From: Candidatus Omnitrophota bacterium
GTDB lineage: Bacteria > Omnitrophota > Gorgyraeia > Gygaellales > Profunditerraquicolaceae
Reading direction: 5' to 3'
Assembly (NCBI GenBank): GCA_028715785.1
Contig: JAQURC010000001.1
Span: 12,766-76,765 of the forward strand
DNA: 64,000 nt
Below are positions 8,082-22,478 of this stretch, piece after piece (position 1 is the stretch's first letter; the number at the start of each line of letters is the position of its first letter). The notes below the pieces were generated by a model. It worked only from the letters and a program-made list of their open reading frames with translations, ran no database searches and was not told the DNA's origin. The position numbers and the translations under genes were made by a program.

Positions 8082-8197
8082 TTGGCTTGACAAAGAAGAC
8101 TATATTTATTAAGATTAAATAGTAAAATTTTACTATATAACAGGAGCGCGCCGGTTGTTTTTGGAGCTAAACTCATTAATTTCAATAAGGTTAGGGA

Positions 8198-8464
8198 ATG
8201 ATTTGGGAAGCTGAAACTGAAAGTAAATTTAAGACCCTGATTTCCAAAATACCCGTATTCCATCGGCATATTACCGAATCAGTGGTCAGCCGCCAAGCAG
8301 AGAAAATCGCCGGCAATCGTAATTGCAGCCAGGTGGAAGATCGGGATGTGATCGCCGCTTTTTTCTCCGATGTCCCCTCGCCGTTCTACAGCATGATGGT
8401 CCGTCTTCTTGAGCAGAATGGTTTTGATTATAAAAAGTACGGTTTTCCAAAGGAGACTCGGTGA
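8198..8464 (+). CDS. Small PCP_red-like domain protein (protochlorophyllide-reductase 57 kDa C-terminal-like fold), function unknown
   Basis: 88 aa. WEAETESKFKTLISKIPVFHRHITESVVSRQAEKIAG resembles PCP_red family small proteins. First gene after a promoter-like gap (TTGACA at 8089). Confidence 0.35.
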   Translation: MIWEAETESKFKTLISKIPVFHRHITESVVSRQAEKIAGNRNCSQVEDRDVIAAFFSDVPSPFYSMMVRLLEQNGFDYKKYGFPKETR

Positions 8465-9468
8465 TGCGTATAGCAATCATTGGCGCCGGGGCCATAGGCT
8501 GTTTGGTTGCCGCTTATCTTAAGGAAAAGGGCGAAGATGTAACCTTAGTCGGCCGCAGTGGTGCGGTCAAGGCGATTAGAGAAAACGGTATTATTGTTTC
8601 AGGGATCAGGGGCAATCTTTTGGCGCATATCGGCATTTCCGACACCCTGAACTATGTCCCGGATTTAGCGATCCTGGCTACTAAAACACAGGATATCAAT
8701 TCTGTTTTGCAGGATAACTCGCATTTACTGCAGAACTCCCTCTTGTTGACCATTCAAAACGGCGTCCGGGCGGATAGTCTGGTTGCCCGGTACGTGCCTG
8801 CGCAGAAGGTTATTTCCAGCATAGTCATGTTCGGTGCAACCAACTTAGAGCCGGGCAAGGTAGTGCATAATTTCGAAGGCAGCTGGGTATTGGGGAGTTT
8901 CTTTAATCCCAATCCTTCCGAGTCTCTGCTGTCCGTGAGCCTGGTTTTAGATAAGGCGTTCCCGACGATAATAAGCAAAGACATAAAGGGGATGAAATAT
9001 TTGAAGATTTTTGTCAATGCCAGCAATTGCCTGCCGGCAATCATCGGCAAGAGCATGCAGGAGGTCTTTAGCGACCTGGCGGTCAGCCGGATCAGTATCG
9101 CTATCTGGAAAGAAGCCTTCAGGATTATCGATTATATCGGGATAGATCTGGTCTCTCTCCCGGGGTTCCCGCTGGAAAACCTTACCAAGCTTACTTCGAT
9201 GCCCAGCGAGTTGGCGGCCCAGGTTTTTTCGGAACGCATGAAAAACCTGAGCAAAGAACCGTTATACGGTTCGATACTACAGAGCATAATGCGCGGTAAC
9301 CTTTCGGAGATCGATTATATTAACGGTGAATTTGTGCGCCTGGCCGAAGAGAATTCTATGCAGGCTCCTTTAAATAAGATTTTAGTGGAGATGGTGCATC
9401 AGGTGGAAAAGAATAACCGGTTTTTCAGCAAAGAAGATTTAATCCAGAAAACAAAAGAGTTGATTTAG
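8461..9468 (+). CDS. 2-dehydropantoate 2-reductase family oxidoreductase (ApbA/PanE-like)
   Basis: N-terminal Rossmann IAIIGAGAIGCLVAAYL...DVTLVGR. ~335 aa typical of the ketopantoate reductase family. 4-bp overlap with the upstream gene. Confidence 0.65.
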   Translation: MMRIAIIGAGAIGCLVAAYLKEKGEDVTLVGRSGAVKAIRENGIIVSGIRGNLLAHIGISDTLNYVPDLAILATKTQDINSVLQDNSHLLQNSLLLTIQNGVRADSLVARYVPAQKVISSIVMFGATNLEPGKVVHNFEGSWVLGSFFNPNPSESLLSVSLVLDKAFPTIISKDIKGMKYLKIFVNASNCLPAIIGKSMQEVFSDLAVSRISIAIWKEAFRIIDYIGIDLVSLPGFPLENLTKLTSMPSELAAQVFSERMKNLSKEPLYGSILQSIMRGNLSEIDYINGEFVRLAEENSMQAPLNKILVEMVHQVEKNNRFFSKEDLIQKTKELI

Positions 9469-9472
9469 AAAA

Positions 9473-10060
9473 ATGAAAGAAGTTAAAACCCCTTTTCCCC
9501 GCTTAAAACTTACCGTAACCCAAGTCTTGGGGGATTGTTACCACGGTTATAAAAGCGGCGATGAAATTATTTTAGAAGATTTTACCCACGCCCCGGTCCA
9601 TTTTTGCTTAGGGCTGGCGCACGCGCTTTTTCCGGTAATCTATGCTTTGAGCTTTGGGGCAAAATTCGGGTTCCGCGATAACCAACGCTCTTTACTGGTC
9701 ACCTGCCCCGACGGAGGAAAGCTGGAATTTAAGGCCGAGATTTTAGATAAAGGGGGTAAACTTGAGGTTGTCCCAAGAGATCCCCGGCATAAAGGGCCAA
9801 ATCCCAAGAAGATGGTTATTGAGGTAGTTGAGGCAAAAGGGAAATGCGCCTTTGGATATAAAGTCGGGGACAAATGGGAGACGCAGGGTTTAAAATGTAT
9901 CCCGGGTTTTTGCGGGGCGGCATTCCACACGGCTTTTCCGGCATTGTTTGCCTTAAATTTCGGAGCCAAATTTTTCTTTATGCCGGATCCGGATTCAATC
10001 GATACGGTTACCTGCCCGGACGGCGGCAATATTGTGTTTAAGGTGACAAGGGTCGAATAA
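9473..10060 (+). CDS. Tandem-duplicated TIGR04076-family protein (two ~95-aa repeats with conserved Cys/His/Pro residues)
   Basis: Both halves carry KGxCxxGYKxGD...CP.GFCxxAFHxxFPxxxALxFGAKF...TCPDGG...VFKVTRVE. Internal repeat visible by eye. Confidence 0.55.
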   Translation: MKEVKTPFPRLKLTVTQVLGDCYHGYKSGDEIILEDFTHAPVHFCLGLAHALFPVIYALSFGAKFGFRDNQRSLLVTCPDGGKLEFKAEILDKGGKLEVVPRDPRHKGPNPKKMVIEVVEAKGKCAFGYKVGDKWETQGLKCIPGFCGAAFHTAFPALFALNFGAKFFFMPDPDSIDTVTCPDGGNIVFKVTRVE

Positions 10061-10083
10061 TCATTAAAGTAATTTACGACCCT

Positions 10084-10162
10084 TGTCATTGCGAGGAGCG
10101 TAGCGACGAAGCAATCACTAAAAGCGAGATTGCTTCGGGCACTTCGTGACCTCGCAATGACA
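10084..10162. repeat. MITE-like element, TGTCATTGCGAG...CTCGCAATGACA family, copy 1 (79 bp)
   Basis: 12-bp terminal inverted repeats plus inner inverted repeat GAAGCAATC/GATTGCTTC. Intergenic before the KS gene. Confidence 0.7.
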
Positions 10163-10178
10163 CAAGAAGGAATATTAT

Positions 10179-11441
10179 ATGAATAAACGACGAGTTGTGA
10201 TTACCGGCATTGGAGTAATTTCGCCAAACGGCATTGGTAAATATAACGCCTGGGAAGGTTTTTCCAGCGGAAAAAGCGGGGTACGTTTAGTTGACGGCTT
10301 TGACGTCTCGGTTTTTAATACCAAGATTGCCGCCGAAGTCAGGGATTTTGACCCTTTTAAATTAGGGCTGAACCACCAGGAGGCCATGCGTATGGACCGC
10401 TATGTGCAGTTCGGGGTAACTGCCGGCAAAATGGCGGTAGAGGACAGTAAATTAGATTTTTCCAAAGAAGATACCCGGCGCATCGGAGTTTGTTTGGCCA
10501 ATGCCATCTGCGGGACAAAATATATGGAGGAGGAGTTTGCTTTAGTTACCGAGGACGGGAAAAAACCGATTAATCCGGCTTTAGTGCGGCCGGATTTATA
10601 CGACGCGGCGATGTTTAACACTCCTTCGATAGAAATCAGCGCGCGTTTTGGCTTAAAAGGGATTTGCAATACTATTTCTACCGGATGCACTGCCGGCACG
10701 GATTCATTGGGTTTTGGTTTAGAAAGTATCCAGGATGGGGAGCAGGATGTAATGATCTGCGGGGCCGCGGAAGCCCCGCTTACCCCGATCACCTTCGGCG
10801 CTTTTGATGTGGTCAATGTTTTATCCGTGCACAATGACCATCCGCAGAAAGCATCGCGCCCTTTTGATAATCAGCGCGACGGATTTGTGCTCGGAGAAGG
10901 GGCGGGGATTCTAGTCCTTGAAGAATTAAATCACGCTTTAAAACGCAATGCCCCGATTTATTGCGAAGTGTTAGGTTTTGGCACCAGCTGTAATGCCTTT
11001 CACATGACCGACCTGCCTTCCGACGGCCGGGCAATGGAAACCTGTATCAGCTTGGCTTTAAAAGATGCGGAAATAAAACCGGATGAAATTGATTATATTA
11101 ACGCCCATGGCTCAAGCACGCGGATGAATGATATTTTTGAAACCAACGCCTACAAGGCGATTTTCGGCCAGTATGCTTATAAGCTGCCGATCAGTTCGCT
11201 TAAGTCCATGATCGGACATCCCCTGGCTGCGGCAAATGCCATTGAGATGACCATGGTTTCGATGATGTTTGAAAAAAACATCCTGCCTCCGACGATAAAT
11301 CAGGACGAAAAAGACCCGCAGTGCGATTTATATTATATTCCCAATCAGGCAATCCAGAAAAAAGTTAACACGATCATAAAAACCAGCAGCGGTTTTTCAG
11401 GGATACATTCGTCATTGGTTTTAAAAAGGTTTAAGGAGTAA
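10179..11441 (+). CDS. Beta-ketoacyl-ACP synthase (KAS I/II-type, catalytically intact; KS-alpha-like)
   Basis: Active-site Cys in TISTGCTAGTDS. His in AFHMTD and INAHGSST. GHPLAAANAIE. Full Cys-His-His triad. Confidence 0.9.
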   Translation: MNKRRVVITGIGVISPNGIGKYNAWEGFSSGKSGVRLVDGFDVSVFNTKIAAEVRDFDPFKLGLNHQEAMRMDRYVQFGVTAGKMAVEDSKLDFSKEDTRRIGVCLANAICGTKYMEEEFALVTEDGKKPINPALVRPDLYDAAMFNTPSIEISARFGLKGICNTISTGCTAGTDSLGFGLESIQDGEQDVMICGAAEAPLTPITFGAFDVVNVLSVHNDHPQKASRPFDNQRDGFVLGEGAGILVLEELNHALKRNAPIYCEVLGFGTSCNAFHMTDLPSDGRAMETCISLALKDAEIKPDEIDYINAHGSSTRMNDIFETNAYKAIFGQYAYKLPISSLKSMIGHPLAAANAIEMTMVSMMFEKNILPPTINQDEKDPQCDLYYIPNQAIQKKVNTIIKTSSGFSGIHSSLVLKRFKE

Positions 11442-11447
11442 TCCAGA

Positions 11448-11473
11448 GTAGGGGAGGTTTAAACCTCCCCTAC
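11448..11473. repeat. 26-bp palindrome GTAGGGGAGGTTTAAACCTCCCCTAC (REP-like, copy 2) with flanks CCAGAG/TCTGTGGATAA
   Basis: Identical core to 5776 and 14488. Between the two KS genes. Confidence 0.8.
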
Positions 11474-11493
11474 TCTGTGGATAACTTAGAATA

Positions 11494-12735
11494 ATGGAAA
11501 AAATCGCAATTACCGGCATCGGCGTAGTCAGCCCTTCGGGTATCGGAAAGCGGCAGTTCTGGGCAAACCTTAAAAGCGGGCGCTCGTTTATTAAAAAGAT
11601 CACCCGTTTTGACGCCTCATTATACCCGGCGCATATTGCCGGCCAGATCGACGATTTGGAAAAATACAGCCATATTTCCGAAAGGCTCTTAAAAAAAATC
11701 GACGCCTTTTCGCATATGGCGCTGGTGGCTTCGGAGATGGCCCTGCAGGACGCCGGGATCGATATTAAAAATGAGGATCCAAGTCTTGTGGGGATTTTTT
11801 TGGGCAACGCTATCGGCGGCTGGCTGTATGCTGAAACCGAATTAAGGGATTTATATTTAGAAGGCCGGGAGGGCGTTTCGCCTTATATGGCCTCGGCCTG
11901 GTTTCCCGCGGCTCCCCAGGGGCAGGTCTCCATTTATTATGGAATAAAAGGTTTTAGCAAGACCGTGGTCAGCGACCGGGCCAGCTCTTCGATGGCTTTA
12001 GGGTACGCCAGGAAAGTTTTAGCTAAAAACAAACTAAATATGATTTTGGCAGGGGGGATGGAGGCTCCGGTTACCCCGTATGCCTTATTATGTTGTAATA
12101 CTTATGGGGCGCTATCTAAGAATAACAACAATCCCCAGGGAGCGTACCGGCCATTCGATAAACAGCGCAGCGGTTTTGTCATCGGCGAAGGCGCCGGAAT
12201 TGTAGTAATGGAAAGTATCCCGCGCGCCCAAGAAAGAGGAGCAAATATTTTAGGGGTAATTAGCGGATACGGCACCACTTGTGACGGGGCGGATAGGATT
12301 AATTGCGCCAGTGACGGCAAAGAGTTGGCGCGCGCCATTAATATGGCGCTTAGTGACGCAAAGGTAAATCCCGAAGAGATCGGTTATATCAGTTTAGATG
12401 GTTTAGCAGTTGATCTTTGGGATAATTCTGAAATTGCGGCGTTGAAACTGGTTTTTGGAAATAATTTAAAAAATATTCCGCTCAGCTGCCCCAAATCCAT
12501 GTTCGGGAATTTGCTCGGCGCATCCGGGGCATTGGATATGATTATCGCGCTTTTAACTATGGAGCACGGTTTGGTTGCCCCGACTTTAAATTTAGAGGCC
12601 CCGGTTTTGAACAATTTAAATTATGTGGCCGGTGAAGCCAGGGAATATAAAGTAAGCAAGTCTTTGATCATCTCGCGCGGCCGCGGCGGGATTAATTCGG
12701 TTCTAGTAGTTGAGAAAAACGGAGGAAAAAAATGA
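11494..12735 (+). CDS. Ketosynthase-like protein lacking the catalytic triad (chain-length-factor / KS-beta-like partner)
   Basis: Thiolase-fold KS homology throughout. The active-site position reads SDRASS (Cys->Arg). The His positions read GTTCDG and ISLDGLAV (His->Cys/Asp). 4-bp ATGA overlap with the downstream radical SAM gene. Confidence 0.75.
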   Translation: MEKIAITGIGVVSPSGIGKRQFWANLKSGRSFIKKITRFDASLYPAHIAGQIDDLEKYSHISERLLKKIDAFSHMALVASEMALQDAGIDIKNEDPSLVGIFLGNAIGGWLYAETELRDLYLEGREGVSPYMASAWFPAAPQGQVSIYYGIKGFSKTVVSDRASSSMALGYARKVLAKNKLNMILAGGMEAPVTPYALLCCNTYGALSKNNNNPQGAYRPFDKQRSGFVIGEGAGIVVMESIPRAQERGANILGVISGYGTTCDGADRINCASDGKELARAINMALSDAKVNPEEIGYISLDGLAVDLWDNSEIAALKLVFGNNLKNIPLSCPKSMFGNLLGASGALDMIIALLTMEHGLVAPTLNLEAPVLNNLNYVAGEAREYKVSKSLIISRGRGGINSVLVVEKNGGKK

Positions 12736-14192
12736 AAATATTATTCGTTATGCCCAGGGTAGGCGCGTGGGCGACGCACGGCATTCACCGGTCACCGAAC
12801 CAGCTTTACGCGCACTGGGCTGCGTATGCGCGGGAGAGGGGTTACGAAGATGTCGCGGTCATCGACGGAAGGGCCCTGGAAATACCCATGGAGCAGCTGG
12901 TGGAGCAGGTAAAGGCAAAAAACCCGGATGTAGTGGTCATGGGAGAGCAACTGCACGGTTATGGCGGCTACGGCGTATTACGGCATTTTAAAGACGCGGC
13001 CATTGGGATTAAAAAAGCGCTGCCTAAAACAAAAATAATTCTCGGCGGGCTATGGTATTCAGCAATGCCGGTGCCGACATTAGAGGAGAACTCCGCGGTT
13101 GACTTTGTGGTTATGGGTGAAGAGGAATCTTTCGGAGACTTGATCGAAGCAATAGATAAAAATAAGCCGCTTGGCGATGTGGGTGGCGTTACTTCCCGTA
13201 TTGACGGGGCAATTGTTATGGGCCCGCATAAGCCGCTGATGGAAGATTTAGACAAGCTTCCTTTGCCGGCTTATGATTTATTTCCGATGGATAAATACGT
13301 GGGCCATACTTATTGGAAACCGTTTGTGGATATGGTAACCTCAAGGGGCTGCCCTTCAGCCTGTACTTTTTGCTACGAATGGGACCAGTTTGATCCGCGT
13401 TCGCCTTCAGATTTCTTGAAATGGCGGGCTAAATCTCCGGAAAGAGTCATGGAAGAAATGAATCTTCTGCATAGAAAATACGGGGTTAAAGTCGTAGTTA
13501 TTCAGGACGATAATTTTAATGTCGACCCTAAAAGAGTGCAGAAGTTTTGCGAACTTAAAAAAGCATCGAATAATCCAATCAAGTGGGTATCTTTAGGCCG
13601 GGCTGTTGATTGGGTCAATTGCGAATCCATCCTGCCCCTGATGAAAGAAAATGGTTTATTCATGGGCGTTTTTGGCATCGAGGTGACGACCCAGTCAGAG
13701 CTTAAACGGATCGCCAAAGGCATTACTATCGACCAGATTAAAAAAACCATAGAGATCTTACGCAAGAATGATATCGCTATCGTGGCGGATATCATGATGG
13801 GTTTTGATTATGACACCGAGGCTATCGTCAAGCAGAGGTTTGAGTTTACCGATATGGTGGACCCGGATATTTTATGGGTAGGTTATGTTACCCCTGCCCC
13901 GAATTCACCGATGTGGAGGATTGCTCTAAAGAAAAACTGGATTGATCCTAAGAAAGTAGATTTTAGCCAATGGGATTTTCTCCATCCGGTAATCCCTACG
14001 GACCATCTATCCACAGAAGACCTTGGCCGTTTGGGTTCCTGGTGCATGCGTGAATTTTTCTCAAAGCCCGGGCGGATAAACAGGATTATGGAGAGTAATT
14101 TTGATCCGTTAGCCAAGCTCTGTTTCAAGGATGTTATGGATGGAATAGGCAAATGGGAAGCAGTCGCGACAAAAGGCGAAGTGCAGATATAA
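12732..14192 (+). CDS. Class B (cobalamin-binding) radical SAM enzyme
   Basis: N-terminal B12-binding-like domain, then radical SAM SRGCPSACTFCYE (CxxxCxxC). 486 aa. The first ~300 nt are markedly GC-rich. Confidence 0.85.
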   Translation: MKILFVMPRVGAWATHGIHRSPNQLYAHWAAYARERGYEDVAVIDGRALEIPMEQLVEQVKAKNPDVVVMGEQLHGYGGYGVLRHFKDAAIGIKKALPKTKIILGGLWYSAMPVPTLEENSAVDFVVMGEEESFGDLIEAIDKNKPLGDVGGVTSRIDGAIVMGPHKPLMEDLDKLPLPAYDLFPMDKYVGHTYWKPFVDMVTSRGCPSACTFCYEWDQFDPRSPSDFLKWRAKSPERVMEEMNLLHRKYGVKVVVIQDDNFNVDPKRVQKFCELKKASNNPIKWVSLGRAVDWVNCESILPLMKENGLFMGVFGIEVTTQSELKRIAKGITIDQIKKTIEILRKNDIAIVADIMMGFDYDTEAIVKQRFEFTDMVDPDILWVGYVTPAPNSPMWRIALKKNWIDPKKVDFSQWDFLHPVIPTDHLSTEDLGRLGSWCMREFFSKPGRINRIMESNFDPLAKLCFKDVMDGIGKWEAVATKGEVQI

Positions 14193-14197
14193 TGTGC

Positions 14198-14251
14198 CAC
14201 CCCGCGCTTATAGGAATTGCGCGGGTGTGCCCTTGTGGGCTAGGAGAATAA
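14198..14251 (+). promoter_or_regulatory. Conserved two-hairpin 5' leader element (copy 1) ending in AGGAG-N7-ATG of the acp gene
   Basis: CCCCGCGCTTATAGGAATTGCGCGGGTGTGCCCTTGTGGGCTAGGAGAATAAATG. Same module upstream of rpsT, pilT and prfB. Confidence 0.6.
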
Positions 14252-14491
14252 ATGGATATAAAAATAAAAGTTAAAGAAGTGTTGGCGAATTTGCTAAAAG
14301 TTAAAATTGAAGAGTTAAAGGATGAGGTATCTTTGATCAACAGTATCGGCGTGGATTCTACCGAGATGGTGGAGTCGGTAATTGCCCTGGAAAAATCATT
14401 TGGGGTCAAGCTTAGCCCCAAGGAGATCACCAAGAATTCGACCATTAACGATATCGTAAATAATATCCAGCCAAAGTTATCCACAGAGTAG
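14252..14491 (+). CDS. Acyl carrier protein
   Basis: 79 aa. GVDSTEMVE phosphopantetheine-attachment motif. The stop TAG lies inside the REP palindrome. Confidence 0.8.
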   Translation: MDIKIKVKEVLANLLKVKIEELKDEVSLINSIGVDSTEMVESVIALEKSFGVKLSPKEITKNSTINDIVNNIQPKLSTE

Positions 14492-14513
14492 GGGAGGTTT
14501 AAACCTCCCCTAC
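14488..14513. repeat. 26-bp palindrome GTAGGGGAGGTTTAAACCTCCCCTAC (REP-like, copy 3), left flank TTATCCACAGA
   Basis: Identical core. Overlaps the acp stop codon. Confidence 0.8.
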
Positions 14514-14540
14514 TACGGGAATGGGAAAGGAGTTAGAGGG

Positions 14541-15341
14541 GTGAAGATTGTTGACTTGAGCCTGCCCATCGATGAAAAGGCTTTTGAGGTGCACAAGGTT
14601 GAGATCGAGCGGATAACCCATAAAGCCGGCGTCGATAAGTTCAACCGGGTGATTATGGGCAAGACCCTCTTAGGCAGAATAAAATACGCCTTAGGCGCCC
14701 GCATCGTCAGAAAGGGGCAGCTGCCCGATGAAGAATTCCTCTCTTTGGAGATTGTACATGCTCCGGTGCATATAGGAACACACCTGGATTACTCCTTCCA
14801 TTATGGATCAAAATCAGAAAATCGCCCTTCCAAGACCGCGGATGAGATCCCGTTAGAATATTGTTACCAGGACGGGGTTAAACTTGACTTCCGGCATAAA
14901 AGACCCAATGAAGTAATCAAGGCGCCGGATATAGAAAGCGCCCTGAAAAAGATAAATTATCAGCTTAAGCCTTTAGATATTGTGTTATTGCACACCGCCG
15001 CCGATAAGCTCTATGGCGGGCCAAAATATTTCTCGGATTATCCCGGGGTTGATCCTGGGGCCATCGGTTATCTTTTGGATAAAGGAATTAAAATCTTTGG
15101 CACAGACACGATGGGGATTGACCGGCCATACAAATTTATGCTTAAGGAATTCCTGGAAACAGGGGACCCCAAAACTTTTTATCCGGCGCATTTTTATGGA
15201 CGGAAAAGAGAATTTATTCATATAGAACGCCTGGCTAACTTAGAGAAGTTGCCGGATTGTGGATTTAAAATTATCTGTTTTCCTATACGCATCAAAAATA
15301 CCGGGGCCGCCTGGGCCAGAGTGGTGGCTTTTTTAGATTAA
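14541..15341 (+). CDS. Putative cyclase family protein (PF04199-like; kynurenine formamidase/polyketide cyclase fold)
   Basis: HAPVHIGTHLDYSFHYG matches the HxGTHxDxPxH cyclase signature. GTG start after AAGGAG. Confidence 0.7.
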   Translation: MKIVDLSLPIDEKAFEVHKVEIERITHKAGVDKFNRVIMGKTLLGRIKYALGARIVRKGQLPDEEFLSLEIVHAPVHIGTHLDYSFHYGSKSENRPSKTADEIPLEYCYQDGVKLDFRHKRPNEVIKAPDIESALKKINYQLKPLDIVLLHTAADKLYGGPKYFSDYPGVDPGAIGYLLDKGIKIFGTDTMGIDRPYKFMLKEFLETGDPKTFYPAHFYGRKREFIHIERLANLEKLPDCGFKIICFPIRIKNTGAAWARVVAFLD

Positions 15342-15455
15342 TGGCGTAAAACGGGTCCTGTCTTGGGTATTTTCTAGCGCTAAACGCGCGTCGAAAACAC
15401 CCAAGCCACCCGTTTTATCAAAATCTAAAAAAGCAAAATAATAGCGGAGGATGAA

Positions 15456-15896
15456 ATGGGACATACTTGCAATTCAATAATTATTAAGGCGCCTTATGAG
15501 TTAGTTTTTGATATCTCTAATGACATCCCGCGCTGGACGCAGTTGTTCGGCAGCGAATATAAAAAAGCCGAAATCCTAAAAAAAGAAGCCAACAAAATCA
15601 CTTTTCGCCTTACCGACGACGAAGATAAATCCTGGGTTTCCTGGAGATTGTTATACAAGGATAATTTCTTTACCTATTCGGAGCGCTATGAACCGAAATT
15701 CCCCTTTAATTATATGAAAATTATCTGGCTCTATACGCCAAAGCCCGAAGGGATAGAGTTAACTTGGATCCAGCATTTCCAGATGGATGAAAAGGCCAAG
15801 TTTAACGATGAGCAGGTGGAAGGTTTTATCAATAAACATTCCAAAGAGAACTTATTGATTTTTAAGAAGGTTATTGAAGAGGCAGCACTTAAATAA
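15456..15896 (+). CDS. SRPBCC superfamily protein (polyketide cyclase/dehydrase-like, Bet v1 fold)
   Basis: 146 aa. IIKAPYELVFDISNDIPRWTQLF N-terminus and overall pattern typical of Polyketide_cyc2/SRPBCC proteins. Confidence 0.55.
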   Translation: MGHTCNSIIIKAPYELVFDISNDIPRWTQLFGSEYKKAEILKKEANKITFRLTDDEDKSWVSWRLLYKDNFFTYSERYEPKFPFNYMKIIWLYTPKPEGIELTWIQHFQMDEKAKFNDEQVEGFINKHSKENLLIFKKVIEEAALK

Positions 15897-15910
15897 AGGT
15901 TATTCACAAT

Positions 15911-15936
15911 GTAGCGGACGTTTAAACGTCCGCTAC
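15911..15936. repeat. 26-bp palindrome GTAGCGGACGTTTAAACGTCCGCTAC (REP-like, copy 4; covariant arms)
   Basis: Same architecture and TTTAAA centre as 5776. Both arms changed in a complementary way. Confidence 0.75.
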
Positions 15937-15967
15937 GGTCAGGTTAGGATTATACGGGAGGTTAATT

Positions 15968-16744
15968 ATGAGCACAGATTTAAAAGGCAGGATTGCCATT
16001 GTTACCGGTGCCAGCCGCGGTATCGGTAAATCTTTAGCTTCAACCGCAGCAGGTTTGGGCATAAATTTAGTTATCGGCGCCAGAGGACAAGGCCCTTTAG
16101 AAGAAACTGCGGATGAGCTTGCCAGGAAATATAAGGTCCGGGTATTGCCGGTTGCCTGCGACGTCACAAAATTAGAGGACTTGGAAAATTTGGTAAACAA
16201 GGCTAAAGCTGAATTCGGCAAAGTCGATATTTTGATTAATTGCGCCGGAGTTTCCTCGCAATATCCTTTTAACGAGCAGCCGATCGAGGATTTTGAAAAA
16301 TTGGCGCATACGAATTATCTGGGCTATGTGCGGTTAATCCGCCTGGTAATTAACGATATGATCAAACAAAAATACGGGGCGATCATCAATATCGTTTCCG
16401 GCTCGACGCTGGTGGATCCTGTCCCCAGAAATTTCATTGTTTACAGCTCGCTTAAAGTCGGCCTGCGCGCTTTTTCAAAAGGCCTGTTTTGGGAGTTGCG
16501 CGACCACGGGATCAAGGTTACTTCTATTTTACCCGGAGTCACCGATACGGATTTAACCGGCAAGCTTAAGGATATTACCAGCGATACATCGCGCCTTATG
16601 AGCACGCAGGCAATCGAGGATGCGGTGCGTTTTGCTTTGACTGTGCCGGCTAATGTTTGTCCTCTTGAGATCTCGGTAATTAACCAACAAACACCTTGGA
16701 CTGCTCCGGTAATACCGTTTAAACAGCAGCACCCGGGAAAATAA
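15968..16744 (+). CDS. SDR-family oxidoreductase (ketoreductase-like)
   Basis: TGASRGIGKSLA cofactor motif. YSSLKVGLRAF (YxxxK) catalytic motif. Confidence 0.85.
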   Translation: MSTDLKGRIAIVTGASRGIGKSLASTAAGLGINLVIGARGQGPLEETADELARKYKVRVLPVACDVTKLEDLENLVNKAKAEFGKVDILINCAGVSSQYPFNEQPIEDFEKLAHTNYLGYVRLIRLVINDMIKQKYGAIINIVSGSTLVDPVPRNFIVYSSLKVGLRAFSKGLFWELRDHGIKVTSILPGVTDTDLTGKLKDITSDTSRLMSTQAIEDAVRFALTVPANVCPLEISVINQQTPWTAPVIPFKQQHPGK

Positions 16745-16757
16745 GCGGAGAGAAGAA

Positions 16758-17369
16758 ATGAAAAAAATATTTTTTGCGGCAGCAACAGTAGTTTTATTTA
16801 CGGCAGGGGTTTGTTTAGCTGAAGGCGGTAATTTATTAATTGATGATTTTGAAATTTCAGTTACCGGCGGCCCCGAAGGAACGGTTGATTTCGGCGCAGG
16901 TAACGGCTCAAGCGTGGAGGTAACAGCGGCTAGTGATATTAAAAATAGCGGCAATCAGGCATTAAAGGTAGTTTATGACGCATCTCCGGGAGGATATATT
17001 TATGTAGCCCGCGGCTTTGGGCTTGACGCCAGGAACGCTAACTGGCCAATCCAGCCTTCGGATATTAAATGGGAAGAATACAGCGCGATATCATTCTATG
17101 TTTACGGAGCGGATTCTAAAGCGAAAATCGCTTTTGATATAAAAGATAACGGCGGGGAGATCTGGCGTTTTATGACCGAGGATGATTTTAAAGGCTGGAA
17201 GAAAGTAGTTTGCAGTTTTGATAAATTTGTCGTGCGCGACGATTGGCAGCCAAACGACGCGGACAATAACAAGCAGTTGGATTTTCCGGTTAAGATCTTC
17301 CAATTTGAACCGCTTCCCGGATCAAAAGGGACTTTTTATTTTGACACGGTGGAGCTGGTTAGAAAATAA
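16758..17369 (+). CDS. Secreted beta-sandwich protein (CBM11/CIA30-like), function unknown
   Basis: Signal peptide MKKIFFAAATVVLFTAGVCLA. Gly/aromatic-rich beta-strand pattern. Confidence 0.35.
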   Translation: MKKIFFAAATVVLFTAGVCLAEGGNLLIDDFEISVTGGPEGTVDFGAGNGSSVEVTAASDIKNSGNQALKVVYDASPGGYIYVARGFGLDARNANWPIQPSDIKWEEYSAISFYVYGADSKAKIAFDIKDNGGEIWRFMTEDDFKGWKKVVCSFDKFVVRDDWQPNDADNNKQLDFPVKIFQFEPLPGSKGTFYFDTVELVRK

Positions 17370-17382
17370 GAAAGGTGGGGAT

Positions 17383-17796
17383 ATGAATAACCAGGATGTT
17401 AAAAATTTAAAGAAACGTTATTTTATCTGGCTCTATAAAACCGCCAAAGAAACCTTTGATAAATATGAACGCAAGTTTACGCAAGTCGATATCGATAAGG
17501 ATATCCTGGCGGAAATGGAGAAAGAGCTTTTAGGTTCCTACCTTCCCCATGAAAAAGATGCCCTGCAGAGGCAGATCAACGATTTTCAGAAATATATCGA
17601 AAATAAGGAAAAGGCCTGTTCAGAACTCAGGGACCAGCATAGAAAGATCAATCCGGATTTTATTTTCTCGGAAATAAAACTGAATGCGATTGAGAAGGTA
17701 ATCGTCAGGGGGTTGGGCAGGAGGGGGCTGGAAGAGATCAGGTCCCTTTATGAAAAAGAGATGGCCGAACGCATCTTAAAGAGCACGGAGCATTGA
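17383..17796 (+). CDS. Hypothetical coiled-coil protein
   Basis: ATG at 17383 after AAAGGTGGGG. The upstream part of the ORF-track frame overlaps the previous gene. Confidence 0.4.
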   Translation: MNNQDVKNLKKRYFIWLYKTAKETFDKYERKFTQVDIDKDILAEMEKELLGSYLPHEKDALQRQINDFQKYIENKEKACSELRDQHRKINPDFIFSEIKLNAIEKVIVRGLGRRGLEEIRSLYEKEMAERILKSTEH

Positions 17797-18707
17797 TGTT
17801 AATCGACGCGCATAGCCACTGGCTGCCGGATGAAATAATTAATAATGCCCATTTTTTCCATAAGGGCTGGGGGGATATCCAGGCGCAGCTGGCGATCATG
17901 GAGGCGCTGGGGATCAACCGGGCGGTTTTAAGTTATCCTAATTCGGACGCGCATTTGAAATTAGGCAGTGTCAGCCAAGTGGCGCATATTTATAATGATA
18001 ATGTCGCCAAAATTTTAAAGGCCCATCCCAAAAGATTTATCGGCGCCGCAGTTTTGCCTGTGGATAATTCCGTCGATATGCTGGAAGAGCTAAGGCGGGC
18101 AATCAATGAACTGGGTTTTAAGGCAATTTCCCTTGCCTCAAGCTATAACGGTATATATTTAGACGATAAGATGTTTTTACCTATATATAAAGAAGCGCAA
18201 GAGAAGGATATCCCGATCTTTGTGCATCCGCAGATTGTAAACCCGATAGGTTTTGAGCGGGTCAAGGATCCGCTGCTTACTCCGGTTGTTGAATATGTTT
18301 TTGACACCACGATTTCAATCGGCAAGCTTTTAATGTCGGATATTTTGCGCCAGTATCCTAAAGTAAAATTTATTTTCGCCCATTTCGGCGGGGCAATCTG
18401 CTATCTTAAGCAGCGTTTTGACGCCACCTATCAGATGCTGCGGGGGATGAACTTTGTCAAAGACCTGCAGGGGCTTCCTTCGGATTATCTTAAGAATATT
18501 TACGTTGATACCAGCGGCGATACTACTAGCGCGAATTTTCTGCTTGCCCTTGAACTTATGGGGCCTAAACATATTTTGTGGGGCAGCGACTGGCCGGCAA
18601 AGAAAGATGTTGCCAGCGGCATCAAAGCCGTCAACGATTTGGATATATCCCAGGAGAATAAACAGAATATCCTGGGGGGAAATTTAGAAAAATTATTTGT
18701 TCTTTAG
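17793..18707 (+). CDS. Amidohydrolase-2 family metal-dependent hydrolase (TIM barrel)
   Basis: N-terminal IDAHSHW metal-binding motif. ~300 aa. Confidence 0.65.
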   Translation: MMLIDAHSHWLPDEIINNAHFFHKGWGDIQAQLAIMEALGINRAVLSYPNSDAHLKLGSVSQVAHIYNDNVAKILKAHPKRFIGAAVLPVDNSVDMLEELRRAINELGFKAISLASSYNGIYLDDKMFLPIYKEAQEKDIPIFVHPQIVNPIGFERVKDPLLTPVVEYVFDTTISIGKLLMSDILRQYPKVKFIFAHFGGAICYLKQRFDATYQMLRGMNFVKDLQGLPSDYLKNIYVDTSGDTTSANFLLALELMGPKHILWGSDWPAKKDVASGIKAVNDLDISQENKQNILGGNLEKLFVL

Positions 18708-18933
18708 TATTTTGCTCTTTCAGGATATTGTTCGCGTGCGAAATTTTTCGCCGTGTGCTGCGGTTTACGGCTCGCTCCGGCAGCGCAGTGTTCCTTGCGT
18801 ATTATGAGATTGCCTGCGCTCGCCGTAACTCCTTGCACACATTTGCCGAAAAATTTCTAATGCACGCTCCACAATATCCTTCGAGTAAAATTTAACCGAG
18901 CAAGTCTCGTCACCGCAAAACGGAGTAAGGATT

Positions 18934-19308
18934 ATGATAAAATTATTGAATTTAATTATCGGGGGAGCGGCGGGGACAATTGCCAGGTATCTTTTGGCCG
19001 GCGTTGTTTACAGGTTTATGGGCGCCGGGTTCCCTTACGGCACCTTAATTGTCAATATCAGCGGCTGTTTTATCCTGGGTTTTCTAGCTTCTTTATCGGA
19101 TAAGAAATTTATCCTGGGCCCGGATGCCAGGATCCTGTTGATGATCGGTTTTTGCGGAGCGTATACCACATTTTCAACCTTGATCTTTGAAACCGACAGT
19201 TTAGTCAGGAATGGCCAGGCAGTCCGCGCTTTTACCAATATTTTTGCCAGCGTAATTTTTGGTTTTATATTATTCAGGATAGGCAGCTTATTAGGAGAGA
19301 TAATATGA
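18934..19308 (+). CDS. crcB: Fluoride ion channel CrcB/Fluc
   Basis: 124 aa with four TM segments. GxxGTxxRY-like N-terminus (GGAAGTIARYLL). Confidence 0.85.
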   Translation: MIKLLNLIIGGAAGTIARYLLAGVVYRFMGAGFPYGTLIVNISGCFILGFLASLSDKKFILGPDARILLMIGFCGAYTTFSTLIFETDSLVRNGQAVRAFTNIFASVIFGFILFRIGSLLGEII

Positions 19309-19634
19309 AAATTCCCGCGGATGGAAAGCTTTTAAGGATTTTTATCGGTGAGGCGGACAAATGGAACGGCCGGCCGCTTTATGAGGAGATTATATTGTTG
19401 GCCAAGAAGGAAAAATTGGCCGGGGCAACGGCAATCAAAGGATTTATGGGGTTTGGCTGTAAAAGCCATATGCATACCGCTAATTTATTGCGGCTTTCCG
19501 AGGACCTGCCGGTGGTTATTGAAATCGTGGATAGCGAAGAGAAAATCAATCAGTTTATTCCGCAGTTGGATAGCATGGTTAAGGAAGGGCTGGTTACTCT
19601 CGAAAAAGCAAACGTAATTATGTACCGGGCGTAA
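19305..19634 (+). CDS. DUF190 family protein (commonly co-transcribed with crcB)
   Basis: 109 aa. LRIFIGEADKWNGRPLYEEII pattern. 4-bp overlap with crcB. Confidence 0.65.
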   Translation: MKIPADGKLLRIFIGEADKWNGRPLYEEIILLAKKEKLAGATAIKGFMGFGCKSHMHTANLLRLSEDLPVVIEIVDSEEKINQFIPQLDSMVKEGLVTLEKANVIMYRA

Positions 19635-19658
19635 TCGTAATTAAGAGGAGAAACTAAA

Positions 19659-20408
19659 ATGCAAATGCAGAAGAATGTTCATCTCACAGGCAAGGATTTA
19701 ACGGAAATGGTCCAGCTTCGGAGGCAGGATGTGGGCAAATACGCCATTGTTCCCGGGCCGCGCGACCGGCTGGATGTTTTAATGAAAAAAATAGAAAACC
19801 CGGTGCGTAATTTTTCGTTTATGGAATACACTATGTATACCGGCACTTATGAGGGGATCAAGGTTACCGGGATTAACGGCGGGAGGTTTTCCACGGACAC
19901 TTCGATTACTACCGAGGTAATGTGCAATGCCGGGATACAAAATATTATCCGCATCGGCACAGCCGGCGCCCTTGATGAAAATATCAAAGTTGGCGATCTG
20001 TTTGTAGTAGATGAGGTTATCCGCGGGGACGGGGTAACCCCTTATTATGTGGATAAAGATTTTAAAACAGTCAGTGACAAGAAGATCTCCGACCTTCTTT
20101 TTGAGATTGCCAAAGGCATGGGGTTAAACGTGCACCGCGGCAAGGCATGGACTACGGATGCGCTTTTACGCGAAACCCGCGAAATTGTCGAAGCCAAGCG
20201 CAAAGAAGGAGCAAGGGCGGTAGATATGGTTTCCTCAACGCTCTTGACTATCTGCCAGACTTATAATATTAAAGCCGGATCAATCCTGGCGGTAAGCGAT
20301 AACGTGATCACCGGAGAGATGGGCTTTATGAATCCACTTTATTATATGGCGGAAAGTAATTTAATAAAGATTGCATTGGAATTAGTTAAAAAATTAGAGG
20401 GCAAATAA
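19659..20408 (+). CDS. DeoD-type purine/MTA nucleoside phosphorylase (PNP_UDP_1 family)
   Basis: TGTYEGIKVTGINGG...IIRIGTAGAL...MVSSTLLTICQTYNIKAGSILAVSDNV parallels DeoD/Udp conserved blocks. Confidence 0.7.
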   Translation: MQMQKNVHLTGKDLTEMVQLRRQDVGKYAIVPGPRDRLDVLMKKIENPVRNFSFMEYTMYTGTYEGIKVTGINGGRFSTDTSITTEVMCNAGIQNIIRIGTAGALDENIKVGDLFVVDEVIRGDGVTPYYVDKDFKTVSDKKISDLLFEIAKGMGLNVHRGKAWTTDALLRETREIVEAKRKEGARAVDMVSSTLLTICQTYNIKAGSILAVSDNVITGEMGFMNPLYYMAESNLIKIALELVKKLEGK

Positions 20409-20411
20409 ACT

Positions 20412-20556
20412 TGTCATTGCGAGCCCCGAAGGGGCGAAGCAATCTCGCTTTTAAGATTGCGCAGCCTGTTCCGAGCGAAGCGAAGGAATCCGGTTGCGAG
20501 GGGCTGCTGGTTTGCTTCGGCTTCGCCTCGCAACCGCTGCGCTCCTCGCAATGACA
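20412..20556. repeat. MITE-like element, TGTCATTGCGAG family, copy 2 (145 bp, composite)
   Basis: Terminal IRs TGTCATTGCGAG / CTCGCAATGACA with an extra internal partial copy (GGTTGCGAGG...CCTCGCAACC). Its translation forms the spurious N-terminal extension of ORF 20457. Confidence 0.7.
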
Positions 20557-20561
20557 CTAAA

Positions 20562-21482
20562 ATGACTATGAAATTTTCTCCCTTATTTTGGCCGATACAA
20601 TTGAAGGGCAATGTAATTTACATCTTGGATGAAACTAAATTGCCGCAAAGGTTGGTTTATCTCAAGGCCAAAAATTACTTAGAGGCATGCCGGGCAATCA
20701 AGCAGATGAAGACCCGCGCCGTAGGCCAGGTGCTTTTGGTAATGTATGCCTTTCTTTTAAGCAAGCGGCAGAATAAAAATTTAGCCAAAGTCGCCAAAGC
20801 CATTAACGCCACCCGGCCGACCCTATCCTTTAAATTTTTAACCGATATGGTTTTAAGCTGGGAAAAAGGCGGCGCGCCGCTTGAAAAAAGTATTTTAGGT
20901 TTCCTAGCGATGCTTAAAACCAAACGTATCGAGCAGGCCAGGGAGGCGGCTAAATTACTTAAAGACGGCGATGTAGTCTTGACACACTGTAATATCAGCG
21001 GCCTGATGCCCTTAATTGCCGAGTTTGCCAAAGAGCAGGGCAAGAAAATAAGTTTTTACGTTACGGAAACCCGTCCGTATTTGCAAGGCTCGCGCCTTAC
21101 TGCCTGGGAAATCCAGCGCGCGGGTTTTGATGTTACGATCATCACCGATAATATGGTGGCATATTTATTATCGTTAGGTAGAGTGACCAAAGTTATCGTC
21201 GGAGCAGACCACTTAACCTTAAACGGGGACATCGCCAATAAGATCGGCACCTATCAGATCGCGGTAGTCGCCAGGTATTTCAAGATTCCTTTTTACGTAA
21301 TCTGTCCGCCGGCATCGAAATTAAAAAGCGGAAAAGAAATTAAAATTGAAATCCGGCCGGATAATGAATTAAAAATTTATCAGGGGCTGCATTTGGCGCC
21401 CAAAGAGGTTAAAGCGTATTATCCGGCCTTTGACGTTACGCCGGCAAAATTAATTACCCGGCATATTCATTTGGGGGTTTAA
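20562..21482 (+). CDS. mtnA: S-methyl-5-thioribose-1-phosphate isomerase (eIF-2B alpha/beta/delta family)
   Basis: YVTETRPYLQGSRLTAWE and GADHLTLNGDIANKIGTYQIAVVA blocks. The ATG at 20562 follows the MITE, whose terminal CAATGAC supplies an upstream in-frame ATG-ACA-CTA-AAA-TGA mini-ORF. Confidence 0.8.
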   Translation: MTMKFSPLFWPIQLKGNVIYILDETKLPQRLVYLKAKNYLEACRAIKQMKTRAVGQVLLVMYAFLLSKRQNKNLAKVAKAINATRPTLSFKFLTDMVLSWEKGGAPLEKSILGFLAMLKTKRIEQAREAAKLLKDGDVVLTHCNISGLMPLIAEFAKEQGKKISFYVTETRPYLQGSRLTAWEIQRAGFDVTIITDNMVAYLLSLGRVTKVIVGADHLTLNGDIANKIGTYQIAVVARYFKIPFYVICPPASKLKSGKEIKIEIRPDNELKIYQGLHLAPKEVKAYYPAFDVTPAKLITRHIHLGV

Positions 21483-22478
21483 ATGCCAGAGCAGGAATTA
21501 AAACTGGAAATTATCCAGGTAGGCAGGCGGCTTTATGCTGCCGGCCTGGCCGTAGCCAAGTCCGGAAATTTAAGCGCACGGCTTGACAGCGAGAATATCC
21601 TGATTACCGCCACCGGAACAGCCTTGGGCCAGTTAAAAGAAAGCGATATCGTTAAGGTAAATTTAGCCACCGGTAAATCCGAGGCAGGGCCGAACCCCAG
21701 CTCCGAACTGCCTTTGCACAGTTTAGTCTATAAAAATTTTCCGGCTAAGGTTGTAATCCATTGCCATCCGCCGCTAATTAACGGATATTTTGCCGTCGCC
21801 AAAACGCTTAAGGCAATGAGTTTTGAAACTAAATTTTATCTCGGAGATATTCCGGTAATCCCCCAGGAAACCCCGACGGTGACGGCTCCTGCGCCGGTTA
21901 TCGCGGCATTAAAAACAAATAATCTGGTTATCTTGAAGAATCACGGGACAGTGGCAATTGGCGATAAGTTTGAAGAGGCCCTAAGTATTACCGAAGCATT
22001 AGAGGAGGCGGTTAAAAGCGCCGCCGTTGGCCGGCTGTTTGATAAAAACATTTTGGATGATTTAGACTTGGCTTTAAAAGATGATTTAAAGCGCAATGAC
22101 CCGGCCTATGCCATGTTTAGCCTGCCGCATATCCAGGCAATCGTGGATTTAGTCAACAAGGATGAGTTTATCGCCCAAAAGGGAAAAGAGCTGGGCCTGA
22201 CGGTGCAGCTGGCGATCAAGCTCGATGACACGAGCGAGGTTTTTAAATTTAGTTTTGAGCAAGGCAAAATCGTAAAACTGGATACTGACAGCCTTGCCCC
22301 TTTTGTTATTTCCGCGCCCCGGCCTGTATGGGAGCAGGTATTTTTAGGCAAACTGGATTCATTTGTGGCAGTTACCCAGGGTAAAATGAAATTAAGCGGC
22401 CAATTAGGCCAGCTTTCCAAATGGTATGTCCCGTTTAACCGCCTTTTTGTTTTATTCCGGGAGGTAAAAATCAAATGA
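21483..22478 (+). CDS. Class II aldolase/adducin-domain protein fused to a C-terminal SCP2-like domain (candidate methylthioribulose-1-P aldolase or dehydratase)
   Basis: VVIHCHPPLINGYFAV class II aldolase metal-binding block. C-terminal ~110 aa with GKMKLSGQLGQLSK is SCP2-like. Confidence 0.65.
   Translation: MPEQELKLEIIQVGRRLYAAGLAVAKSGNLSARLDSENILITATGTALGQLKESDIVKVNLATGKSEAGPNPSSELPLHSLVYKNFPAKVVIHCHPPLINGYFAVAKTLKAMSFETKFYLGDIPVIPQETPTVTAPAPVIAALKTNNLVILKNHGTVAIGDKFEEALSITEALEEAVKSAAVGRLFDKNILDDLDLALKDDLKRNDPAYAMFSLPHIQAIVDLVNKDEFIAQKGKELGLTVQLAIKLDDTSEVFKFSFEQGKIVKLDTDSLAPFVISAPRPVWEQVFLGKLDSFVAVTQGKMKLSGQLGQLSKWYVPFNRLFVLFREVKIK

Follow-up and report, generated by a model that had tools for sequence, protein, structure and literature searches.

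A conserved operon of Omnitrophota predicted to encode an oxygen-independent aromatic type II polyketide pathway with a linked 5'-deoxyadenosine-recycling gene set

The window analyzed here is a 64,000-nucleotide stretch from a Candidatus Omnitrophota bacterium (assembly GCA_028715785.1, contig JAQURC010000001.1, positions 12,766 to 76,765). The operon at positions 8198-25506 of this window probably encodes an oxygen-independent aromatic type II polyketide pathway together with a linked set of genes for the recycling of 5'-deoxyadenosine; its genes are numbered g1 to g20 (Table 1). A previous sequence-only reading had described a type II polyketide synthase (PKS)-like cluster of ten genes at 8198-16744. 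The ten plus-strand genes, g1-g10, are indeed present there in the open reading frame (ORF) listing and belong to the families named for them (Pfam and NCBIfam scans), with reservations for g1 and g8 that are given below. The boundaries had to be moved: 8198-16744 is the front half of a conserved operon of ~17 kb, predicted to be co-transcribed and about twice as long as first described, which runs to ~25506 and adds a decarboxylase-like gene and a nucleoside/dihydroxyacetone phosphate (DHAP)-shunt module. The Pfam and NCBIfam scans detected no oxygenase family among the ORFs of the operon (8198-25506), nor any FabA/FabZ-type dehydratase or enoyl reductase family.

The assignment to the aromatic type II PKSs is carried in the first place by the ketosynthase (KS) pair. 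In g4 the alignment shows an intact Cys-His-His triad. Among PDB entries, g4 matches AntD of the Photorhabdus anthraquinone PKS best (6smo_B, 1e-112), then actinorhodin KS-alpha (1tqy_A, 2e-108), and every FabF ranks lower; on plasmids, the nearest relatives of g4 are the KS genes in type II PKS clusters of Azospirillum, Bacillus/Priestia and Streptomyces. In g5, aligned to FabF, the catalytic Cys is replaced by Arg and the two His residues by Asp and Asn; this loss of all three catalytic residues, already noticed in the earlier reading, is found in every orthologue (R/D/N in 121 of 121), and the His to Asp change is common to all the chain-length factors (CLFs) aligned, from Streptomyces and Azospirillum. 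A neighbor-joining (NJ) tree with 500 rooted bootstraps was calculated with E. coli FabB and FabF, a second FabF, AntD, and the KS/CLF pairs of Azospirillum and Streptomyces as references. In this small taxon sample, g4 falls in the KS-alpha clade (98% bootstrap) and g5 in the CLF clade (99%), while grouping with the two FabF references occurs in 0-4% of the bootstraps. The placement outside FabF agrees with the model scores, as both g4 (462) and g5 (370) are below the cut-off of the FabF equivalog TIGR03150 (493.75). Neither a nesting of the pair within FabF nor an intact second triad is therefore seen, in the tree or in the alignment. The two genes are separated by 52 nt here and abut in most relatives. 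The acyl carrier protein (ACP), g7, is a discrete protein with a phosphopantetheine-serine motif.

The cyclization and tailoring genes point in the same direction. The only PDB relatives of g9 are the WhiE and TcmN aromatase/cyclases (ARO/CYC; E ~3e-24), and the residues of the TcmN pocket are kept (W28, F32, Y35, W65, S67, R69, R82, M91, W95, W108, Q110 and N136); the list and the functional weight of these residues are reportedly given in the TcmN structure paper. The g8 protein had been described as a PF04199 cyclase with the motif HxGTHxDxPxH; the family stands, but the motif reads HIGTHLDYSFH, with Ser at the Pro position. Homologues of g8, at 38-43% identity, are found inside type II PKS clusters of Streptomyces (annotated 'ketosynthase chain-length factor') and Priestia (KS/CLF), and both clusters also carry an AMP-binding (AMP-ligase) gene. 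The closest solved relatives of g13 are 5-carboxyvanillate decarboxylase (LigW), gamma-resorcylate decarboxylase and ACMSD, so that g13 would fit the decarboxylation of an ortho-hydroxy aryl acid. Taken together, the KS-alpha and CLF clades, the dead CLF triad, the TcmN-type g9 and the decarboxylase-like g13 identify the locus, at the level of sequence, as a genuine aromatic type II PKS. The earlier type II PKS assignment is thus borne out, by the 98-99% bootstrap values, the TcmN/WhiE type of g9 and the PKS context of the g8 homologues; all sequence-level marks of membership were found except the canonical CLF glutamine. A catabolic role in the degradation of aromatic compounds is rejected in view of the KS/CLF/ACP/ARO-CYC core. 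An aryl-polyene or highly reducing type II PKS is likewise rejected, on the model scores, the tree, and the dehydratases not found in 8198-25506.

The radical S-adenosylmethionine (SAM) enzyme (rSAM), g6, has a PF02310 B12-binding domain (39.3 bits, cut-off 32.1) followed by a PF04055 Radical_SAM domain (73 bits), with an invariant CxxxCxxC motif formed by C207, C211 and C214. Its start overlaps the stop of g5 by the four bases ATGA, as read earlier and again here from the sequence. With a median identity of 91% it is the most conserved gene of the operon. Its family corresponds to about one cluster in a library clustered at 50% identity; beyond it lie about five full-length clusters at 35-47% identity and then the general BchE-like background at ~30%. 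The best curated models are BchE (199.5 bits, cut-off 481) and HpnJ (152.4 bits, cut-off 578), followed by P- and C-methylases, while the ladderane rSAM model TIGR04072 gives 67.5 bits against a cut-off of 360; the ladderane analogy drawn in the earlier reading is not upheld, the closest families being BchE and HpnJ. Judged from these matches, both a BchE-like anaerobic oxidation of a benzylic CH2 group and a C-methylation are plausible for g6, with neither preferred; the methylation proposed before thus survives as one possible chemistry, with oxidation equally open. In aerobic type II pathways, benzylic oxidation is done by ABM or FAD oxygenases. In the aerobic cluster of Azospirillum there are four genes for ABM monooxygenases, in the Omnitrophota operon none. 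The distant solved relatives of g6 are AprD4 (the best, 62 bits), CysS and TokK, and since AprD4 is not known to use cobalamin, the cobalamin dependence of g6 is not assured.

In the second half of the operon, g16, g17 and g18 are consecutive and conserved, and supply a phosphorylase, an MtnA-type isomerase and a class II aldolase, the gene set of the DHAP shunt. This established pathway converts 5'-deoxyadenosine or methylthioadenosine (MTA) to DHAP and an aldehyde. The g17 protein passes the MtnA-related subfamily model TIGR00524 (Table 1) and scores 219.5 with the MtnA equivalog TIGR00512, below the cut-off of 279. The g16 protein has weak matches to HpnG and to futalosine hydrolase. On the simplest reading, g16-g19 look like a DHAP shunt for 5'-deoxyadenosine, with the activity predicted from the gene families. 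Salvage of this inhibitory compound would be a particular advantage if each turnover of g6 takes several SAM molecules.

The cluster is a highly conserved trait of Omnitrophota, and not, as had been supposed, something unexpected in this organism. A scan of species-representative genomes with an rSAM alignment revealed relatives in 287 of them. The 80 highest-ranking of these, in all of which the gene order recurs, are metagenome-assembled genomes (MAGs) labelled Omnitrophota or Omnitrophica, except some 'uncultured Planctomycetales' and one labelled only 'bacterium'. The genes are colinear in all 44 loci that hold all of g1-g10, which contradicts the alternative of unrelated operons with an unconserved order. 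Counted in the loci with room for them, g12 and g13 are present together in 43 of 43, g16 in 22 of 23, g16-g18 in 20 of 23, and g19 in 14 of 15. The variable members are g11, found in 38 related loci, and g14/g15, which have the position seen in the window in only 9 related loci. Protein identity among the Omnitrophota relatives is 70-95%; the median identities to the window are 86% for g3 and g16, 84% for the KS and the short-chain dehydrogenase/reductase (SDR), and 80% for the CLF, while the neighboring pseudopilin genes reach ~60%. In 44 of 63 relatives (e.g. at 13010-14101 in locus L001 and 8036-9172 in L004), g9 and g10 are separated by an MFS transporter gene. It is missing at 15897-15967 of the window, whose lineage has no dedicated exporter in the operon.

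Rearranged versions of the operon were also found. In a genome of the Thermodesulfobacteriota (L001), a phylum of sulfate reducers, with contigs of up to 3.3 Mb, the block is present at 48-77% identity with overlapping start and stop codons, preceded by MarR and MMPL transporter genes and followed by DUF1329/DUF1302 genes; such identity between phyla suggests that the block moved horizontally as one piece. In L004, a divergent Omnitrophota MAG, the set is reordered, with the rSAM gene after the SDR gene and the ligase and phosphorylase genes in front. In L096 the order is ligase, phosphorylase, isomerase, aldolase, Aldedh, rSAM, g1, ApbA and an NTF2-like gene that replaces g3, followed by KS, CLF, ACP, cyclase, SRPBCC, SDR and Amidohydro_2. 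In another Ca. Omnitrophota MAG (L095, 1-21446 of JBFMHM010000007.1) there are two B12-rSAM genes and an inserted Schlafen/AlbA_2-HTH gene, and the cluster is followed by genes for a molybdenum hydroxylase of the xanthine dehydrogenase family, XdhC and molybdenum cofactor biosynthesis; the hydroxylase could be an alternative anaerobic route to hydroxylation. No shunt genes were found within ~10 kb downstream of this cluster. In three variant loci g1 and the ApbA gene (g2), which travel together, come immediately after the rSAM gene, an arrangement that suggests a joint function of the two. A paralogous module is present in L091 (1-11741) and L097 (5778-16202). It starts with a CBM_11-like gene (g11 type), a CMAS/UbiE-type methyltransferase, an AMP-ligase (63-65% identity to g20) and a B12-rSAM (44% to g6), and goes on with phosphorylase, a split IF-2B isomerase, aldolase/SCP2, Aldedh, MMPL and DUF1329; the rSAM and phosphorylase genes overlap in both loci. 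Because this module exists without a PKS, the substrate of g6 need not be the polyketide and may be the acyl starter.

The gene set can be arranged into a pathway as follows. The g20 ligase would activate an acyl starter, which the KS/CLF pair (g4/g5) would extend with malonyl-ACP to a poly-beta-keto chain. The first ring would be closed and aromatized by g9, while g8 would close a later ring or release the chain; carbonyls would be reduced by g10 and g2, and a terminal carboxylate removed by g13. The step left to oxygenases in aerobes would be done by g6, either as a benzylic oxidation of the BchE kind or as a C-methylation. The 5'-deoxyadenosine set free by g6 would be turned by g16-g19, through the DHAP shunt, into DHAP and acetaldehyde, and the latter into acetate. 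The product is probably lipophilic and directed to the envelope, as suggested by the MFS or MMPL/DUF1329/DUF1302 genes in the clusters of relatives and by the SCP2 domain of the aldolase. As both sequence and order are so conserved across Omnitrophota, we infer a core physiological role and not a sporadic antibiotic.

A number of points weigh against this pathway. No product is known, and the chain length is not predictable from sequence. At the Cys position g5 has Arg in place of the canonical CLF Gln; the Azospirillum CLF also has Arg there and the Streptomyces reference has Gln. The KS tree was made by a simple method with few reference sequences. The g6 protein is below the cut-off of every curated family, which leaves its predicted chemistry open between the alternatives. 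A role of g10 as an ActKR-type C9 ketoreductase is rejected, as it shows no specific ActKR similarity and is a generic SDR. No role in the pathway can be assigned to g1, g3 and g12. The g1 protein matches DUF2621 (E 1e-5) and PCP_red (E 0.0065) below the gathering scores, so that of the PCP_red-like protein reported earlier the gene at 8198-8464 is confirmed and the family match is weak. The Cys and His residues of g3 are invariant in its TIGR04076 repeats, and an AF2 model from a shallow alignment (pLDDT 73) gave no match below E 0.1 in a Foldseek search of the PDB. Neither a malonyl-CoA:ACP transacylase nor a phosphopantetheinyl transferase was found among the Pfam-scanned ORFs of the window, which leave out a few ORFs longer than 120 residues. 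In the downstream part, g16 is Udp/DeoD-like and not MtnP- or MtnN-like, with no match to MtnP, and the SCP2 domain on the g18 aldolase is not explained by simple salvage. The paralogous modules, with their set of g6-type rSAM, phosphorylase, isomerase, aldolase, Aldedh and ligase, have no KS within 16 kb, and the g16-g19-type set may therefore be more than a salvage of by-product.

Several other explanations were considered. The locus may consist of two unrelated adjoining units, a type II PKS (g1-g13) followed by a general nucleoside or 5'-deoxynucleoside salvage set (g16-g20). This is unlikely, even though the shunt trio forms a pathway by itself in other bacteria, CrcB and DUF190 genes lie between the two parts in the window and in 9 relatives, and the ~10 kb downstream of the L095 cluster are without shunt genes: the adjacency outlasts three independent rearrangements (L004, L096 and the window type) and a transfer to another phylum, start and stop codons overlap in L001, g16-g18 are kept in 20 of the 23 loci with room, and the paralogous module ties the same enzymes to an rSAM once more. 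There is also a small chance that the shunt-like enzymes process the substrate itself. In this case g6 would add a 5'-deoxyadenosyl radical to an unsaturated lipid or aromatic compound, g16 would remove the adenine by phosphorolysis, g17 would isomerize the ribose-1-phosphate conjugate, g18 would free DHAP and leave R-CH2-CHO, g19 would oxidize the latter to the acid, and g20 would activate it as a PKS starter. Radical addition of the 5'-deoxyadenosyl group is the reaction of HpnH and MqnE, and removal of the base that of enzymes of the HpnG and MqnB families. The genes for rSAM, phosphorylase, isomerase, aldolase/SCP2, Aldedh and ligase stay together in four arrangements, even without a PKS; besides the rSAM/phosphorylase overlap in L091 and L097, the lipid-binding SCP2 domain is on the aldolase in all versions, g16 is as conserved as g6 (86 versus 91% median identity), and the weak matches of g16 to HpnG and futalosine hydrolase are paralleled by the match of g6 to HpnJ. 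On the other hand, g6 has a B12-binding domain and no match to the HpnH or MqnE models, and we know of no adenosylating rSAM enzyme with such a domain. Moreover, g16 resembles Udp/DeoD much more than HpnG or MqnB, the L095 variant has its PKS and two rSAM genes but no shunt genes within the ~10 kb downstream, and salvage would predict the same clustering of genes if g6, like BchE, needs several SAM molecules for each turnover. The adenosylation scheme is kept alive by four features that lie outside the salvage reading and are left unexplained by removal of 5'-deoxyadenosine: the SCP2 domain, the Udp/DeoD-like character of g16, the high conservation of g16, and the travel of the set with an rSAM paralogue. 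The more elaborate proposal, to which we give little credence, is that of an oxygen-independent polyketide quinone or phenolic lipid serving as a core envelope or redox component, in which the rSAM enzyme would replace the oxygenases and the module would graft a two-carbon acid, via an adenosylated intermediate, as the starter.

A specialized non-aromatic lipid (ladderane, aryl-polyene or branched fatty acid), with the B12-rSAM methylating or cyclizing a reduced acyl chain, would account for the MMPL, DUF1329/DUF1302 and SCP2 genes, which suggest a lipid-like product, and for the CMAS/UbiE-type methyltransferase of the PKS-less module; KS, ACP and B12-rSAM genes occur together in lipid clusters, and a weak TIGR04072 match was obtained. 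It is nevertheless very unlikely, as no family of FabA/FabZ-type dehydratases or enoyl reductases is encoded in the operon ORFs, the TcmN pocket is retained in g9, g4 and g5 group with KS-alpha and CLF, the ladderane model is missed by a wide score (67 bits versus 360), and a decarboxylase-like g13 suits an aromatic acid. Housekeeping fatty acid synthesis by FabF paralogues with neighbors assembled by chance is already contradicted and scarcely deserves belief. The g4 protein does pass the broad FabF-like subfamily model PRK07314 (452 bits, cut-off 387), but it stays below the FabF equivalog cut-off (462 < 493.75), the catalytic triad of g5 is gone in all orthologues, the tree sets both proteins apart from the FabF references, and a FabD/G/Z/I set is missing. 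An aromatic type II PKS with a linked recycling set remains the preferred interpretation.

In respect to known systems, the closest solved counterpart of this PKS is that of the Photorhabdus anthraquinone (AntA-I; AntD/AntE, PDB 6SMO), as AntD is the best solved-structure match of g4 (45% identity). AntE is not among the 60 PDB matches listed for g5, which are 60 of the 100 above the cut-off. The ant cluster, from a Gram-negative host, is composed of the same parts as here, namely KS, CLF, ACP, ketoreductase (KR), ARO/CYC, cyclase and CoA ligase, but is without the radical SAM, TIGR04076, PanE-like, Amidohydro_2 and nucleoside-shunt genes of the Omnitrophota operon. The KS-alpha/CLF clades and the TcmN/WhiE-type ARO/CYC are shared with the act, tcm and whiE systems of Streptomyces (references L087 and L099), and L099 also has a PF04199 cyclase, an AMP-ligase and an NTF2 protein, as do the operon or its variants. 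Unlike the Streptomyces PKSs, the Omnitrophota operon has the CLF Arg in place of Gln and no FAD or ABM oxygenases; it is near-universal, where those are strain-specific, and its hosts, from uncultured phyla, are inferred to be anaerobes. The closest plasmid-borne KS (47.5% to g4) is on plasmid p3 of Azospirillum brasilense Sp7 (L086, 130.9-145 kb), in a cluster with an R-D-H CLF and MarR and RND export genes. A plasmid of Priestia megaterium YC4-R4 (L098, 28-40 kb) has a KS at 45% and the order KS-CLF-ACP...AMP-ligase...cyclase-SRPBCC. Both clusters carry ABM monooxygenases, cupins and SAM methyltransferases, i.e. tailoring of the aerobic style, and lack the rSAM, TIGR04076, PanE-like and shunt genes. 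They contain the closest plasmid-borne relatives of g4, g8 and g9, in cultured bacteria, and could be tractable models for the non-actinobacterial KS/CLF lineage.

The order of the domains in g6, B12-binding and then radical SAM, is that of BchE (the anaerobic Mg-protoporphyrin monomethyl ester cyclase) and HpnJ; g6 differs from both in forming a tight family of its own and in its PKS context, in place of tetrapyrrole or hopanoid genes. The DHAP shunt (MtnP or MtnN+MtnK, MtnA, Ald2) has the phosphorylase, isomerase and class II aldolase genes in a row, as in g16-g18, whereas g16-g19 have a Udp/DeoD-like phosphorylase, an extra SCP2 domain on the aldolase, and are merged into a PKS/rSAM operon. 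With the ladderane-type clusters of anammox bacteria, relatives within the PVC superphylum, the operon has the combination of KS, ACP and B12-domain rSAM in common; its ARO/CYC, CLF and decarboxylase-like gene point instead to aromatic chemistry.

To our knowledge, nearly all type II PKSs described so far come from aerobic actinomycetes; their products there are antibiotics and pigments that differ from strain to strain and are tailored by oxygenases. The Omnitrophota, an uncultured phylum, are very small and mostly anaerobic bacteria. An oxygenase-free aromatic type II PKS, in a fixed gene order and joined to a BchE-like rSAM and a 5'-deoxynucleoside shunt, is unexpected. The pattern of conservation suggests that the product has a physiological role, for instance in the membrane, in redox processes or in the envelope, and is not an occasional antibiotic, and the gene content points to an anaerobic tailoring chemistry not yet described for aromatic polyketides. 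The set includes three conserved proteins without known function (TIGR04076, DUF2621-like and the 137-residue protein), and as a compact, defined set it is directly testable by heterologous expression. No new principle is involved as far as shown. In a catalogue of 2023, KS-CLF pairs are recorded for 14 phyla, Ca. Omnitrophica being one of them, within an 'unexplored non-actinobacterial clade' (PMC10132072). Apart from this catalogue entry, no paper was found on the cluster, on the function of TIGR04076, or on type II PKSs of Omnitrophota or Desulfobacterota, nor one describing the conservation of the cluster, its rSAM or its linkage to the shunt; the earlier view of the pathway as an undescribed one is in line with the literature.

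Table 1. Positions of the operon genes and of sequence elements within and around the operon
Feature	Position	Strand	Remarks
Promoter-like site TTGACA-17-TAAGAT	8087..8115	+	Consensus scan, pattern match alone; in the 116-nt gap between the type II secretion system (T2SS) operon and g1
g1: 88-residue protein, weakly DUF2621/PCP_red-like	8198..8464	+	
g2: ApbA/PanE-family NAD(P)H ketoreductase	8461..9468	+	TIGR00745 173.9 bits (cut-off 141); position conserved
g3: tandem TIGR04076 protein, two repeats	9473..10060	+	NCBIfam
Long hairpin repeat, ~100-nt perfect stem	10082..10180	+	g3/g4 spacer; fold -44.9 kcal/mol, z -6.9
g4: KS-alpha-type ketosynthase, Cys-His-His intact	10179..11441	+	
Repetitive extragenic palindrome (REP)-type palindrome GTAGGGGAGGTTTAAACCTCCCCTAC	11444..11474	.	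g4/g5 spacer; lineage-specific insertion
g5: CLF-type non-condensing KS partner, R/D/N at triad positions	11494..12735	+	
g6: radical SAM enzyme, N-terminal B12-binding domain, BchE/HpnJ-like	12732..14192	+	
Repeated double-hairpin spacer element	14197..14241	+	g6/g7 spacer; ends in the ACP ribosome-binding site
g7: acyl carrier protein	14252..14491	+	PF00550 E 1e-10; DST serine motif
REP-type palindrome	14484..14514	.	g7/g8 spacer
g8: PF04199 metal-dependent cyclase/hydrolase	14541..15341	+	Pfam
g9: SRPBCC, TcmN/WhiE-type mono-domain aromatase/cyclase	15456..15896	+	PDB matches
REP-type palindrome, variant copy	15907..15937	.	g9/g10 spacer
g10: classical SDR, candidate ketoreductase	15968..16744	+	Pfam/NCBIfam
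g11: secreted CBM_11-like protein	16758..17369	+	
g12: 137-residue protein, no family match	17383..17796	+	Always just before the Amidohydro_2 gene
g13: Amidohydro_2, LigW/gamma-resorcylate decarboxylase-like	17793..18707	+	
g14/g15: CrcB fluoride channel and DUF190	18934-19634		Between g13 and g16
g16: PNP_UDP_1 nucleoside phosphorylase, Udp/DeoD-like	19659..20408	+	PF01048
Second copy of the long hairpin repeat	20410-20574		g16/g17 spacer
g17: MtnA-like (IF-2B family) sugar-1-phosphate isomerase	20457..21482	+	TIGR00524 203.8 bits (cut-off 185.85)
g18: class II aldolase with C-terminal SCP2-like lipid-binding domain	21483..22478	+	PF00596
g19: NAD(P)-dependent aldehyde dehydrogenase	22475..23962	+	
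g20: AMP-forming acyl-CoA/ACP ligase	23962..25506	+	Upstream of g1 in some relatives

The spacers of the operon contain several hairpins, which had been taken as a sign of tuned expression. The REP-type hairpins of the cluster have folding energies of -23 to -34 kcal/mol (z-scores -3.4 to -6.6), and others are scattered in the window (at 5772 and 60551). A function as conserved regulators is rejected, as the REP core is found in 2 of 84 related loci and as, in most relatives, the g4/g5 and g7/g8 spacers measure -1 to -4 nt and the genes overlap or abut at the hairpin sites. A gene for an IS200-like Y1 transposase (RAYT-like) lies at 33769-34359, with inverted repeats at 33671-33703 and 34358-34390, and is a plausible mobilizer of the scattered hairpins. 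The rarity of the core, the abutting junctions elsewhere and this transposase together argue that the REP hairpins are mobile elements of the lineage and not part of the operon design. Copies of the double-hairpin element are located at 45321-45370 (minus strand), 50646-50690 and 51837-51887, and the members of this family end in a ribosome-binding site immediately before start codons. The Rfam scan of the whole window returned two tRNAs alone; riboswitches for cobalamin or SAM and known leader RNAs were not among its matches.

The upstream neighbor of the operon is a type II secretion operon, gspE-K, and the remaining genes of the window are housekeeping genes (RlmN, FeoB, LeuRS, MurJ, UvrC, RF, SecA and Lnt). 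The G+C content is ~0.45-0.47 across the cluster and even over the window (0.39-0.49), so that the region, with ~45-47%, is not markedly AT-rich, as had been stated earlier. The even G+C content and the housekeeping surroundings indicate that the cluster belongs to the core chromosome and not to an island. Nearly all long ORFs of the window are on the plus strand, and the GC skew is positive across the 64 kb (1-64000), an extreme case of co-orientation. An ORF of 251 codons at 29301-30056, with no Pfam match, contains at least 8 tandem copies of a 21-nt unit (29709-29944), each encoding a 7-residue repeat rich in Arg, Asp and Glu.

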